From: Gammaproteobacteria bacterium
GTDB lineage: Bacteria > Pseudomonadota > Gammaproteobacteria > G965277405
NCBI GenBank assembly: GCA_965277405.1
Contig: OZ255726.1
Span: forward strand, 192,001 to 256,000
DNA length: 64,000 nucleotides
Direction: 5' to 3'
Below are positions 16,968 to 60,681 of the stretch, piece by piece. The first letter of the stretch is position 1; each line of letters begins with the position of its first letter. Both the position numbers and the translations under genes were made by a program. The notes under the pieces were generated by a model, which was not told the DNA's origin, did no database searches, and was given only the letters and a program-made list of their open reading frames with translations.

Positions 16968-17243
16968 GGAAACTCTGATTAAGTCCATGACGGGCGAGAC
17001 GGAAAAAAAACGCTGATGATAACTAGACGCAGTGCGCTGATAATACTGGTGGTATTATTAAGTGCTGCAACGACGTTAGCGCAGCGTTTTTTCCCGTCCT
17101 TCTGTTGAATATACAACGGTTTGATGGTAATTGCTGTGTTGCATCCCTTGGCGTATAACTCGGCATGCGCTTAGCGGTTTGCGCCTTGCAATCATCAGCA
17201 ATTGCCATCAAACTCGCTCCATCAGCACTTAATCAGAGGTTCC
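16968..17243 (+). mobile_element. IS5-type MITE, full-length copy
   Basis: GGAAACTCTGATTAAGT...ACTTAATCAGAGGTTCC; flanks CTAG/TTAG. Confidence 0.9.
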
Positions 17244-37085: not shown

Positions 37086-37380
37086 GGAAGCTCTGATTAA
37101 GTCCATGATGGGCGAGACGGAGAAAAAACGCTGATGATAACTAGGCGCAGTGCGCAGATAATACTGGTGGTCTTGTGGGTGTTGCCAAGTGCTGCAACGA
37201 CGTTAGCACAGCGTTTTTTCCCGGCCTTCTATTGAATATATGATGGTTTGCCTACAAGCGGTACTTGCTGTGTTGCATCCCTTGGCGTATATGCTACGGC
37301 ATGCGCTTAGCGGTTTGCGCCTTGCAATCATCAGCAATTGCAGACAAACTCGCTCCATCAGCGACTTAATCAGAGCTTCC
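37086..37380 (+). mobile_element. IS5-type MITE, reference copy (295 bp)
   Basis: Perfect 18-bp TIR GGAAGCTCTGATTAAGTC/GACTTAATCAGAGCTTCC; TTAG target duplication on both sides. Confidence 0.95.
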
Positions 37381-40347: not shown

Positions 40348-40518
40348 GGAAGCTCTGATTAAGTCCATGTTGGGCGAGACGGATAACAACGCTGATCAAA
40401 CTTAAGCGCAGTGCGCAGATAATACTGGTGGTCTTGTGGGTGTTGCCAAGTGCTGCGCCTTGCAATCATCAGCAATTGCCATCAAACTCGCTCCATCAGC
40501 GACTTAATCAGAGTTTCC
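40348..40518 (+). mobile_element. IS5-type MITE, internally deleted copy (171 bp)
   Basis: Both TIRs present; middle lost at GTGCTGC/GCCTTGC junction. Confidence 0.9.
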
Positions 40519-50351: not shown

Positions 50352-51019
50352 TGTGTTCCTTCTGGTTGTAGCGTATTTCTTGCTAACGGCTGCAGCGGCG
50401 ATACTGCATAAATTTTTCGTTCTATCTTGCCAATTCCTTTAATATTCAACTCCCATAGCACACCATAAGGTAATTTGTTACCAGTAAAAGTTGGTTGTTG
50501 CGATTGTTCCAAATTATCACTGGAGATATCTTTTGCAGCTACTCCAAACGGCTTAACGCTAGCTGCAATAACGTTGTTGAGAATTGCCACTTCCACAACT
50601 TTAGCACCACGAATATTATCAGCCGCAGGCCATGTATAGCGATACAGTGTTTTCTTCGACAAACTATAGCCGACACGCTGGTAAGGAAAACTCAACCCTA
50701 GCCCCAGATCAGCAACACCAAATCGAGTAAATTCGACCAAACTACCACCGCCTAATTTGAATGCAGCGACTGACTGACCAAAAGTATTGCGCACCATACG
50801 TGGGGCTAATTGGCTAAAATCATTCGTCAACACAGTTAGCGCCGTATACAGCTCCATTTGTTTGCTATACACATCGGCTGTTGTAGTTTTCACCGCTAAT
50901 GCTTGTTGTACCCCAATGTTGGCGGCAACAGCAATCACCATGAAAATAGCAGTTGCCACCAGCACTTCAACCAGGGTAAATCCTTGGTTATTTGAATGTT
51001 GCGCTACATGAGCGACCAT
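50348..51019 (-). CDS. gspJ: T2SS minor pseudopilin GspJ
   Basis: Prepilin site QGFTLVEVLVA, DFSQLAPR, QRVGY. Confidence 0.88.
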   Translation of the reverse strand: MVAHVAQHSNNQGFTLVEVLVATAIFMVIAVAANIGVQQALAVKTTTADVYSKQMELYTALTVLTNDFSQLAPRMVRNTFGQSVAAFKLGGGSLVEFTRFGVADLGLGLSFPYQRVGYSLSKKTLYRYTWPAADNIRGAKVVEVAILNNVIAASVKPFGVAAKDISSDNLEQSQQPTFTGNKLPYGVLWELNIKGIGKIERKIYAVSPLQPLARNTLQPEGTQ

Positions 51020-51318
51020 ACATTGAATAGCTAATTGTGCAGTGAGTGTTAGCAGCGACGCAGGAATATTGTTATAATAGAGGAAGTGAATGCGCCATGT
51101 ATTGTAACAACAGCCCTAGTTGATGGAAGGAACTTCAACCAATTTTTACTGTGAACCGTCGCCCATTAAATAAGTATAAACGGCGCTTAATGAGCAATAT
51201 TGTGGGAAATGAATAATCAACACAATGTCAAAACAAATGCGCTCAACATAAACCCCACCAGAGGTTTTTTAGCTTTTGCTACAATCAATTTATTGCAGAT
51301 AACAACTAAATTACGTAG

Positions 51319-51769
51319 GGAAGCTCTGATTAAGTCGCTGATGGAGCGAGTTTGCCTGCAATTGCTGATGATTGCAAGGCTCGGAAGCGCATGCCATAGC
51401 ATATACGCCAAGAGATGCAACACAGCAAGCGTAAGCAATTGCCGCAAACCCAAAGTATAGTTCAATTGAGGGACGGAAAAAAAACGGTGCTAACCGCTAA
51501 GCGCATGCTGTAGCATATACGCCAAGGGATGCAACACAGCAAGTACCGCTACCATCAAACCGTTGTATATTCAACAGAAGGACGGGAAAAAACGCTGCGC
51601 TAACGTCGTTGCAGCACTTAATAATACCACCAGTATTATCTGCGCACTGCGTCTAGTTATCATCAGCGTTTTTTCTCCGTCTCGCCCATCATGGACTTAA
51701 TCAGAGGTTCCCTAAGTTGCATCAGCGTTGTTCTCCGTCGCGCCCATCATGGAATTAATCAGAACTTCC
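51319..51769 (-). mobile_element. Composite/nested MITE copies; the outermost fragment forms the 3' end of rpsT
   Basis: One right-type end at 51319, duplicated internal segment, two left-type ends at 51711 and 51769. Confidence 0.88.
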
Positions 51770-52035
51770 TTACTTGCTAGCGCCTTAATCTTACCGTTTA
51801 AACGTGATTTATGCCGAGCAACTTTTTTCGCACTGAAAATACCCTTCGTCGCCAATTTATCCAGCGCAACTTGCATGCTTTTGAAGAAATTGCTCGCCAA
51901 TTCATAGTCATTCTTTGCAATCGCATGAATGACTTTTTTAATATGTGTCCGCCCGTCCGTGCGTAATCTTTGATTGTTCAGCCGATTCCGCTCTTGGGTT
52001 CGGATTCGTTTGCGTGAGCCTGCACTATTCGCCAT
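51712..52035 (-). CDS. rpsT: 30S ribosomal protein S20 with MITE-derived C-terminal extension
   Basis: MANSAGSRKRIR...KVARHKSRL; last 19 aa read from MITE sequence. Confidence 0.93.
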   Translation of the reverse strand: MANSAGSRKRIRTQERNRLNNQRLRTDGRTHIKKVIHAIAKNDYELASNFFKSMQVALDKLATKGIFSAKKVARHKSRLNGKIKALASKEVLINSMMGATENNADAT

Positions 52036-52579
52036 CTTCTTCTACCTCAGTTTGCTGTTCATCTATATCAATTTGTTCACTAACCAACTCTGCTGCCACG
52101 CTCTCTTCTGTAGCAGCAACAAGATTAGGAAAATTCTCTGAAGTAACCGAAATAGCAACATGCATTTCTACCTCACCATTTAGACGCAAGACAACTCTAT
52201 GCATGCCAATCTGGCGAATCGGACCATCATCAAACACCGCCTCATGGCGGTCAACATCCACTCCTGCGCTGGTAATAATTTCAGCAATTTCTCGCGCACC
52301 AATTGAACCAAACAACTTGCCTTCTTCAGTCGTTTTCACAGTTGCGGCGAGTGTCAGTTTGCCAATTTTTTCTGCGCGTGTTGCCGTCAGCGCTTGGCGT
52401 GCCAGCATTTTTTGTTCAAGCTCACTGCGCCGGAGCTCAAAAACATCACGATTGCCCTTAGTTGCAGGCAACGCCCTGCCTTTTGGTATCAAATAATTAC
52501 GACCGTATCCTGCTTTTACAGATATTACATCGCCGAGCTCACCTAAATTCATCACGTCTTCTAATAAGATAACTTGCAC
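52025..52579 (-). CDS. rplI: 50S ribosomal protein L9 with acidic tail
   Basis: MQVILLE, GYGRNYLIP, GKLFGSI. Confidence 0.96.
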   Translation of the reverse strand: MQVILLEDVMNLGELGDVISVKAGYGRNYLIPKGRALPATKGNRDVFELRRSELEQKMLARQALTATRAEKIGKLTLAATVKTTEEGKLFGSIGAREIAEIITSAGVDVDRHEAVFDDGPIRQIGMHRVVLRLNGEVEMHVAISVTSENFPNLVAATEESVAAELVSEQIDIDEQQTEVEEDGE

Positions 52580-52587
52580 GATACCAC

Positions 52588-52833
52588 CTATTTTTTATGT
52601 TGATCGCAATATGGCAAAATCGCCATATACCGAGCGCGGCGGATTGCTGTAGCAACCTGACGCTGATAATTCGCATTCGTGCCAGTAATCCTACTTGGGA
52701 TAATTTTACCAGTTTCAGTTACCAACTCTTTCATCGCAACTAAATCTTTATAATCAACAAACTCAGTTCTAGCACGCGTAAAACGGCAATAATTCTGCTT
52801 GCGGAAAAAGCGTGAATATCTTCTTGTAATCAT
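52588..52833 (-). CDS. rpsR: 30S ribosomal protein S18
   Basis: [24 protein letters not shown]. Confidence 0.96.
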
Positions 52834-53246
52834 GACGCGTCCTCCGTAGTCGTTGTATCAGCGGCTGCAGCTGCAACAGTACCAGCTTGTTGCGCCAGTA
52901 CTTCTTCCAATCTGCCGTCCTCAGTCAAAACTTCTTTATAAATTGGCGACATTTCAGTACGTGCCACTTTTTCTCTAAATAACAAAAAACGCAGAATCGC
53001 ATCATTAAAACGGAAGTTTTCTTGAATTTTCTCAATAACTACCTTGGTACACTCAATATTCATCAACACATAATGCGCCTTATGCACTTTATTAATTGAG
53101 AATGTTAACTGGCGCCGTCCCCAGTTTTCTTGGCGATGAATGGTTCCTTGTTCTTCCTCAACCATCGTGCGAAAGCGGTCGATCATCGACGCCACTTGAT
53201 CACTTTGATCAGGATGAACCATAAACAAAATTTCATAATGGAACAT
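52830..53246 (-). CDS. rpsF: 30S ribosomal protein S6
   Basis: [28 protein letters not shown]; start at 53246 after AGAGGA. Confidence 0.96.
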
Positions 53247-53445
53247 AGTATCCTCTTTTGGACAATTAGGCCACAATTAAGCAGCAAGAGAGCGCGGCAT
53301 TGTAGGCATCAACTCAATCAATACAACAAAAATCTCAACGTTTTACCAACAATAAAGCTCGCATCATTAAAATAGCCGCATTTCGCTTATTGTATCCAAA
53401 ACCACTTCACATTCCAGCATCAAACAACTAGACTATAACCGCAAT

Positions 53446-60147: not shown

Positions 60148-60406
60148 CCCCAAGATTGCTGTCTTTTATATTAGTATTTTTTCACAAGTGGCCGCTCCTA
60201 GTCTTCCAAATATTGTCCTGTTTGTCTTTGGAGGACAGCTAGTCCTTCAATCATTGCTGTTTTGGTCAACTTTTGCTGCGCTATCTCGGGCAGGAATAAT
60301 TTCAAGAGCAATTAATAAGGCGAACGGGTGGGTCGATATAGCTTTTGGAGGAGCATTAGTATCGTTCGCGGTGTATTTGCTTTGGAGTGGCCTATGGAAC
60401 CTCTGA
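60146..60406 (+). pseudogene. 5'-truncated LysE/RhtB translocator; stop codon supplied by MITE
   Basis: NPKIAVFYISIFSQ...WVDIAFGGALVSFAVYL is the C-terminal half only. Confidence 0.75.
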
Positions 60407-60681
60407 TTAAGTCCATGACGGGCGAGACGGAGAAAAAACGCTGATGATAACTAGACGCAGTGCGCAGATAATACTGGTGGTATTATCAAGTGCTGCAACG
60501 ACGTTAGAGCAGCGTTTTTTCCCGTCCTTCTATTGAATATATGATGGTTTGCCTACAAGCGGTACTTGCTGTGTTGCATCCCTTGGCGTATATGCTACGG
60601 CATGCGCTTAGCGGTTTGCGCCTTGCAATCATCAGCAATTGCAGGCAAACTCGCTCCATCAGCTACTTAATCAGAGCTTCC
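60396..60681 (+). mobile_element. IS5-type MITE, full-length copy
   Basis: GGAACCTCTGATTAAGT...ACTTAATCAGAGCTTCC; CTAT duplicated on both sides. Confidence 0.93.

Follow-up and report, generated by a model that had tools for sequence, protein, structure and literature searches.

The rpsT gene of this genome encodes a ribosomal protein S20 of 107 aa, and the extra DNA at its end, which adds about 18-19 codons to an otherwise normal, single-copy gene, is a repeat, beyond chance. The long frame is very probably explained by the insertion of a MITE before the rpsT stop codon and by a second copy that later became nested in the first. The locus offers a clean, datable instance in which a mobile element appears to have rewritten the end of a ribosomal protein gene, with the presumed old stop still readable and the parent IS alive in the genome. 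The latter consists of one contig of 2.17 Mb with 44.8% G+C. In what follows, the window is the whole stretch of 64,000 nucleotides that was analysed, and positions refer to it unless they are marked as genome positions.

The S20 gene and its extra codons

The open reading frame occupies window positions 51712-52035 on the - strand, from the ATG at 52035-52033 to the TAG at 51714-51712, and encodes 107 aa ending in ...KIKALASKEVLINSMMGATENNADAT. The S20 profile of NCBIfam, TIGR00029, matches residues 1-84 over 84 of its 84 positions with 76.6 bits, against a cut-off of 33, and PF01649 is precomputed for the same protein. The sequence MANSAGSRKR is the S20 N-terminus, common to the 12 homologues that were aligned, and the gene is the sole rpsT match in the genome.

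The length of the product is what sets it apart, as S20 usually has about 83-91 aa and a C-terminus of the type ...KALA(x). Of 273 candidates drawn from 5.8 billion proteins, 271 matched, and among the best 120 listed, which include the query, the other 119 are 86-91 aa long; the closest S20 among these matches is 59% identical. Solved S20 chains retrieved with the single sequence (28 at E <= 0.001) have 83-91 aa. In the alignment, the ends of the homologues fall at query positions 86-91 in 12 of 12 cases, and residues 89/90 onward are therefore extra, which bears out the extension past the normal S20 end seen in the original prediction. The 30 nearest genomes are related at the level of the same class only, and their S20 proteins are 32-45% identical to the query.

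No in-frame stop occurs in the bases read between ...LAS and the TAG at 51714-51712. The single 2.17-Mb contig suggests that the assembly comes from long reads, which are indel-prone, and one explanation of the tail would be that a stop after ...LAS is hidden by an assembly or consensus error, or that the loss of 1 nt from an A-run of the element, described below, is false. This is extremely unlikely. Two read-derived contigs (Logan) cover the gene, X1 (record 8, 2115 nt) from 51686 to 52300 and X2 (record 16, 2088 nt) from 51713 to 52300, both with 0 other letters and 0 gaps; they are identical to the assembly over 51713-52300, and neither has a variant listed within 51712-52035. Even with the consensus A-run, a tail of 16 aa would be left, as on other genes. 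X1 and X2 are a pair of samples from a single study, and the assembly itself may have been made from these data, so that they are not independent biology, but a consensus error in rpsT and its tail is ruled out by them, and the lack of a stop after ...LAS holds at the level of the reads. In X3, the depth over rpsT was zero. The 107-aa gene call is correct, and neither trimming nor a "broken" flag is warranted for the annotation. The tail, called de novo protein sequence in the original prediction, is so far a reading frame and not a protein, and its translation is what we infer from the DNA; the word "fixed", also used there, goes further than one genome and two samples from one study allow.

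The composite element beside rpsT

The pieces that follow the canonical part of the gene are collected in Table 1. On the - strand, they read in the order ...GCA A, GTAA, old left end, TTAG, young copy, older right piece, CTAC, GTAA, and the arms of this composite, of 30-32 nt, are 83-88% complementary. The segments 51728-51772 and 51670-51714 are 87% identical to each other, and each is an inverted repeat of 51313-51344.

Table 1. Features of the rpsT locus, in window positions, and other host genes that join a left end of the element, in genome positions
Feature	Position	Strand	Basis
rplI (L9), 184 aa	52025..52579	-	TIGR00158 over aa 1-148
rpsT canonical part, bS20 codons 1-88 (...KIKALAS)	51772..52035	-	ORF, TIGR00029, N-terminus, sole rpsT match
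Tail, codons 89-107 (KEVLINSMMGATENNADAT), and stop TAG 51714-51712	51712..51771	-	bases, ORF, X1 and X2 contigs
GTAA, gene-side 4-nt flank of the old end (target-site copy), spans codons 88/89	51770..51773	-	bases, family flanks
Old MITE left end, starts GGAAGTTCTGATTAA..., cut at internal TTAR site	51716..51769	-	repeat search; 89.8% to reference positions 1-49
TTAG, flank/target site of the nested copy; TAG is the present rpsT stop	51712..51715	-	bases, copy comparison
Young nested MITE, left ~211 nt	51501..51711	-	99.5% over reference 1-209 to genome 53723-54004
Older right-hand MITE, ~180 nt, including right terminal repeat	51319..51498	-	87% to reference 167-282; inverted repeat I1/I2
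CTAC, far-side 4-nt flank of the composite	51315..51318	-	bases
Presumed ancestral rpsT stop TAA	51311..51313	-	excision model
GspD-type secretin, 742 aa (L013)	genome 289005-291233		Pfam
MalK-like ABC ATPase (MalK OB domain), 380 aa (L014)	genome 1008026-1009168		Pfam
Aspartate/ornithine carbamoyltransferase, 316 aa (L015)	genome 1593298-1594248		Pfam
Rhodanese, 287 aa (L016)	genome 1530708-1531571		Pfam
DctQ, 213 aa (L017)	genome 2132964-2133605		Pfam
BolA, 118 aa (L025)	genome 1616839-1617195		Pfam

The 58 nt at 51715-51772 give 194 blastn-short HSPs in the 2.17-Mb genome, 35 of which, the self-match included, are at least 50 nt long with 84.6-100% identity; the best full-length copy elsewhere has an E value of 2e-11. 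The tail had been ascribed to the left end of a MITE from the letters of the locus, and this assignment is upheld by the genome-wide repeat matches together with the 89.8% identity to positions 1-49 of the reference copy. It was also right that a second MITE begins at the stop: the next copy starts with GGAACC... at 51711, and the stop codon TAG belongs to its TTAG flank.

The pieces differ in their distance from the rest of the family. No other copy comes closer to the tail fragment than 89.8% across the complete fragment, or 92.7% across 55 nt, and the far piece reaches 86% with its nearest copy (175-180 nt). The nested copy has a counterpart 190 kb away that matches it at 99.5%. By this comparison, the tail fragment and the far piece appear to be old and the copy between them recent, where "age" means divergence from the living copies, a measure that subfamily structure can inflate; the diverged state of the S20 fragment reported in the original prediction, when set against its 99.5% identical neighbour, agrees with this. 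The older right-hand piece is probably the other half of the copy that makes the tail.

The subfamily to which the tail fragment belongs reads ...GAAACTTAAGCGCAG (...ACTTAAG) at the place where the S20 copy has TTAG, and an IS or MITE end occupies the same TTAA/G in two other copies (genome 284139 and 118584). This position is an internal target site of the element. The 58-nt piece could instead have arisen as a local tandem duplication of the neighbouring MITE end, which would account for two direct copies lying 58 nt apart with 87% identity (D2), but such an origin is very improbable: a distant copy matches the neighbour at 99.5%, whereas the piece reaches only 87-90%, the piece bears the ...ACTTA signature of its subfamily and not ...ATAACTAG, and the far piece of the composite is equally diverged (87%). 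The remnant of an older insertion is the reading that is followed here. In the interior of the composite, a direct repeat of 45 nt (51385-51429 and 51499-51543, 93%, spaced 114 nt) is read as the putative seam of two MITE copies rather than as a true duplication.

The outer flanks of the locus, GTAA and CTAC, agree in the central TA only. A clean single insertion at rpsT is not demonstrable from these flanks, and the ancestral stop is that of a model. None of the read-derived contigs bridges the whole composite of 395 nt, the inner order of which rests on the assembly, and none of the 15 joints listed, out of 25, links rpsT directly to the far flank. One joint, 51772->51250, was considered as an allele and rejected, as it agrees with a MITE copy (window ~48140) that the same 3.2-kb contig carries.

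The element family and its IS5-family parent

Termini within 4 mismatches of the 18-nt repeat GGAAGCTCTGATTAAGTC number 656 in the whole genome (230 left, 215 right and 211 others). They include 151 left/right pairs 250-330 nt apart, and the two 4-nt flanks are identical in 64 of these, being CTAA in 25 and TTAG in 24; another 7 pairs combine CTAA with TTAG. These flank statistics therefore point to a 4-bp target duplication. With the 282-nt reference copy as query, 273 places were located that amount to 61.5 kb, or 2.8% of the genome, and 177 near-full-length copies have a median identity of 87%. The copies carry short frames only and no transposase gene. Terminal inverted repeats, a target duplication at the level of the family, small size with many copies, and an autonomous partner with the same ends were all found, as in a MITE.

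The partner adjoins the reference copy. It is an IS of 1229 bp (genome 54008-55236) that shares the terminal repeat and is flanked by CTAA at either end, and its 315-aa transposase matches NF033581 (IS5 family) with 330.3 bits, against a cut-off of 140; PF05598 and PF01609 are both matched many times in the genome. Near-full IS copies number 39, and intact open frames of 319 aa are present. Judged by its ends and flanks, the repeat is a MITE derived from this resident IS5-family IS, and the resident element presumably moves it. IS and MITE copies together make up ~5% of the genome. An IS630/Tc1-type origin, which had been considered when the duplication was first read as TA, was rejected, as the genome has no DDE_3 gene and the flanks are the 4-nt CTAA/TTAG.

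IS5 of E. coli likewise generates duplications of a tetranucleotide, YTAR, and its terminal repeat is similar. The present IS resembles the IS5 group of that family in its NF033581 transposase, in a terminal repeat that starts with GGAAG and in the 4-bp CTAA/TTAG duplications, but identity to the nearest transposases on plasmids is only 51-53%, and a 282-nt derivative without transposase accompanies it.

The exact 28-nt MITE terminus has 0 matches in 185,579 species genomes. A 21-nt terminus yields 8 matches in 3 Sedimenticolaceae/Chromatiales MAGs (L045-L052), and these elements share the terminus and have TTAA/TTAG-like flanks, but their interior differs from that of the MITE at the S20 locus; in L048, L050 and L052, the resemblance to the S20-locus family extends to the right ~117 nt, at 75-76% identity. 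The MITE lineage is thus not confined to the source genome. Within the 64-kb window, the reference MITE gives 17 HSPs between 6186 and 61573, in roughly twelve places apart from the S20 locus, for example at 16970-17243 (93%), 37088-37380 (89%) and 60398-60681 (92%) and as a split copy at 40350-40518, and no IS copies lie in the window.

Entry of the S20 frame and proposed history

A frame that runs into the left end, with element base 1 taken as G1, has three possible fates: it closes at once in the flank, at TAA or TAG; it adds 3 residues before a TGA; or it adds KEALIKSMMGETEKKR before another TGA. S20 enters the third of these frames. In the S20 copy, the A-run reads GAGAACAACGC, and most other copies compared have 1 base more. 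Because of this loss of 1 nt, the frame passes the element's own TGA and stops four codons beyond it, at the TAG of the TTAG site, and the same loss makes the tail 19 aa long instead of the 16 of the consensus.

When the composite and one 4-nt flank are excised in silico, whichever copy of the flank is kept, the frame closes after 89 aa at the TAA 51311-51313, a length in keeping with the listed homologues (86-91 aa). The element would therefore have displaced the last one or two codons of rpsT and the stop, and the presumed ancestral TAA now lies ~400 nt downstream. The normal end of S20 had been placed at ...LAS (88 aa); this holds roughly, but not to the residue, the excision model giving 89 aa.

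In the history that we propose, an IS5-derived MITE would have integrated into an NTAN site that preceded the rpsT stop by one or two codons, so oriented and phased that the gene entered the one left-end reading frame that is open for 16 codons. The S20 frame would then leave the gene after S88, cross 54 nt of the element, skip the TGA and stop at the TAG. A second, much younger copy would have landed in the internal TTAR site of the old one and supplied the TTAG with its TAG stop, and a deletion or an unequal recombination would have removed the right ~70 nt of the young copy along with ~44 nt of the old copy. This last step would also explain the 114-nt "duplication" in the composite.

Similar tails on other genes and the stop-codon census

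A six-frame scan of the genome found 255 frames that end in a left- or right-end peptide motif, of which 21, including S20, have at least 100 aa from the first start. The other 20 comprise 6 with a host-gene Pfam match above the cut-off, 1 transposase fragment, 1 LapA match below the cut-off and 12 with no match. The six Pfam-supported genes (Table 1) all join a left end and carry a tail of the type ...LI[KN]SM[MT]GETEKKR, so that the search for similar tails suggested by the original prediction was rewarded with six tagged genes besides S20.

The junctions can also be counted from the side of the element. Of the 62 termini that an ORF of at least 200 codons runs into, 39 place the stop codon within the 4-nt flank itself, 17 extend the ORF by 3-5 aa and 6 are in the frame of the long tail; for ORFs of at least 100 codons, the corresponding figures are 51, 24 and 18, and in both counts some of the ORFs may not be genes. 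In the usual case, then, the element lies exactly on a stop codon, which is restored, and adds nothing to the protein; S20 belongs to a minority class. A preference of the family termini, IS and MITE alike, for stop codons is visible in the same 39 of 62 termini with the stop inside the CTAA/TTAG flank. Together, the six other tagged housekeeping genes and the dozens of stop-parked copies make a compact natural series that could reveal which element-derived tails a cell tolerates.

The left end may even be adapted to insert at the ends of genes without harm, in which case the S20 tail would be a young de novo extension of a helix, borne on the ribosome and either tolerated or used. This idea draws on the target, which holds a stop codon that the duplication restores, and on the incoming frames, which close after 0, 3 and 16 codons; we consider it unlikely. 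If it were true, a MITE peptide could persist on the sole bS20 long enough for selection to test it.

Predicted RNA fold and modelled structure of the tail

The RNA of positions 51800-51290 is predicted to form a hairpin with an MFE of -186 kcal/mol (z = -6.5, 100 shuffles), whose stem consists of the terminal repeats and begins at the rpsT stop codon. By this prediction, the base of a long terminal-repeat hairpin would coincide with the stop codon in the mRNA. Rfam families have 0 matches at E <= 0.1 over window 50900-53400, and a terminator scan returned one weak terminator-like site within the element (- strand, 51498-51483), no more than shuffles give.

The position of the hairpin raises the question of whether the encoded tail reaches the mature ribosome, as the mRNA might be cut at the hairpin and its product tagged, degraded or trimmed, or a protease might clip the tail. 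Cutting of a MITE stem by RNase III and a non-stop mRNA have been raised for EnhC of Coxiella in the available text of the QMITE study (PMC5896051), and the predicted hairpin at S20 does begin at the stop codon. Nevertheless, the rpsT stop lies 5' of most of the stem, and the cell, with a sole rpsT in its genome, would be left with no S20 if the mRNA met a non-stop fate, so that we give a tail lost in this way only a small chance.

In an AlphaFold model, helix 3 (residues 69-103) runs on through the tail, but the pLDDT falls from 90 to 72 to 58 and a single sequence covers the columns, so that the model says little about the tail. Solved S20 chains with C-terminal extensions exist: a profile search retrieved chains of 106 aa, whose residues beyond 91 lie outside the profile, and chains of plastid bS20c with 166-202 aa. 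The 106-aa chains are presumably those of Thermus. Given these structures, a C-terminal S20 extension as large as the tail is not unprecedented on the ribosome.

It might be asked whether the tail has been co-opted, contacting rRNA or a factor and being kept by selection. The fragment that encodes it is old and its frame still open, the AlphaFold model prolongs helix 3 into it, and other lineages have natural C-terminal extensions of S20. However, chance alone leaves 19 codons free of a stop in about 40% of cases, (61/64)^19, the same tail occurs on unrelated enzymes and transporters, and junctions with long tails are a minority, 6 of 62, as expected if the tails are at best tolerated. Co-option has, on balance, very little probability, and the likeliest reading is that S20 carries the tail as a tolerated passenger devoid of any function.

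Comparison with known systems

The closest parallel comes from Coxiella burnetii, in which, according to the parts of the paper available, the MITEs QMITE1 and QMITE2 overlap the 3' ends of working genes and give them their last residues and the stop (PMC5896051). The overlaps given in Table 2 of that paper are 1-50 bp (Wachter et al. 2018, PMC5896051), a MITE lengthens EnhC by 33 residues in strain Dugway, the MITE site is a hot spot for further IS insertion, and the two QMITE families make up 0.91% of the Dugway genome (PMC5896051). The internal TTAR of the element at rpsT likewise takes further insertions. In contrast to the QMITEs as described there, the present family is more abundant (273 places, 2.8%) and its parent IS is intact in the same genome; the elements are of a different family, IS5-derived here, and kinship is not expected. 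The words "ribosomal protein" have 0 occurrences in the text of the QMITE paper (PMC5896051).

Rickettsia palindromic elements, or RPEs (Ogata et al. 2000), and in-frame MITE-ORF fusions are cited in a 2024 review (PMC10969869), the available portion of which mentions no ribosomal protein case. Like the RPEs as portrayed there, the S20 family consists of short repeats from which unrelated housekeeping proteins of a host-associated bacterium receive stretches of peptide. RPEs, however, are in-frame insertions that keep the downstream protein, whereas the S20 element replaces the end of the gene: the RPE pattern is an insertion within an ORF with host protein on both sides, and the S20 frame ends inside the repeat, with the old stop beyond the composite. 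The comparison with RPEs in the original prediction is fair as to effect, then, but the in-frame insertion that defines an RPE is not what is seen here. To our knowledge, RPEs have no signature of terminal repeats and target duplication tied to a living transposase, and the S20-locus family has both. The S20 case seems, by analogy, to work like the QMITE cases and only loosely like the RPEs.

A literature search by title and abstract returned no relevant publication on an RPE within a ribosomal protein. No published case of a ribosomal protein extended at its C-terminus by a MITE or IS came up in the literature searched, and nothing relevant on MITEs together with IS5 was listed, which is no proof that such a case does not exist; the additional files of the QMITE paper may name further affected genes. 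C-terminal residues from MITEs have been described already (Coxiella QMITEs), and so have in-frame insertions (Rickettsia RPEs), as far as the available parts of these sources go. The MITE-tailed S20 thus adds no new principle.

Genomic neighbourhood

In Gammaproteobacteria, rpsT usually stands alone elsewhere in the genome. Here, the order at window positions 51712-53276 (- strand) is rpsF - rpsR - rplI - rpsT, and the ORF list has no priB-like ORF between S6 and S18. L9 carries an acidic tail of 36 aa after aa 148 (...EESVAAELVSEQIDIDEQQTEVEEDGE), for which an origin from repeat DNA was rejected, as its DNA is single-copy. The last 11 nt of rplI overlap the start of rpsT, which is therefore the last gene of the rpsF-rpsR-rplI-rpsT row.
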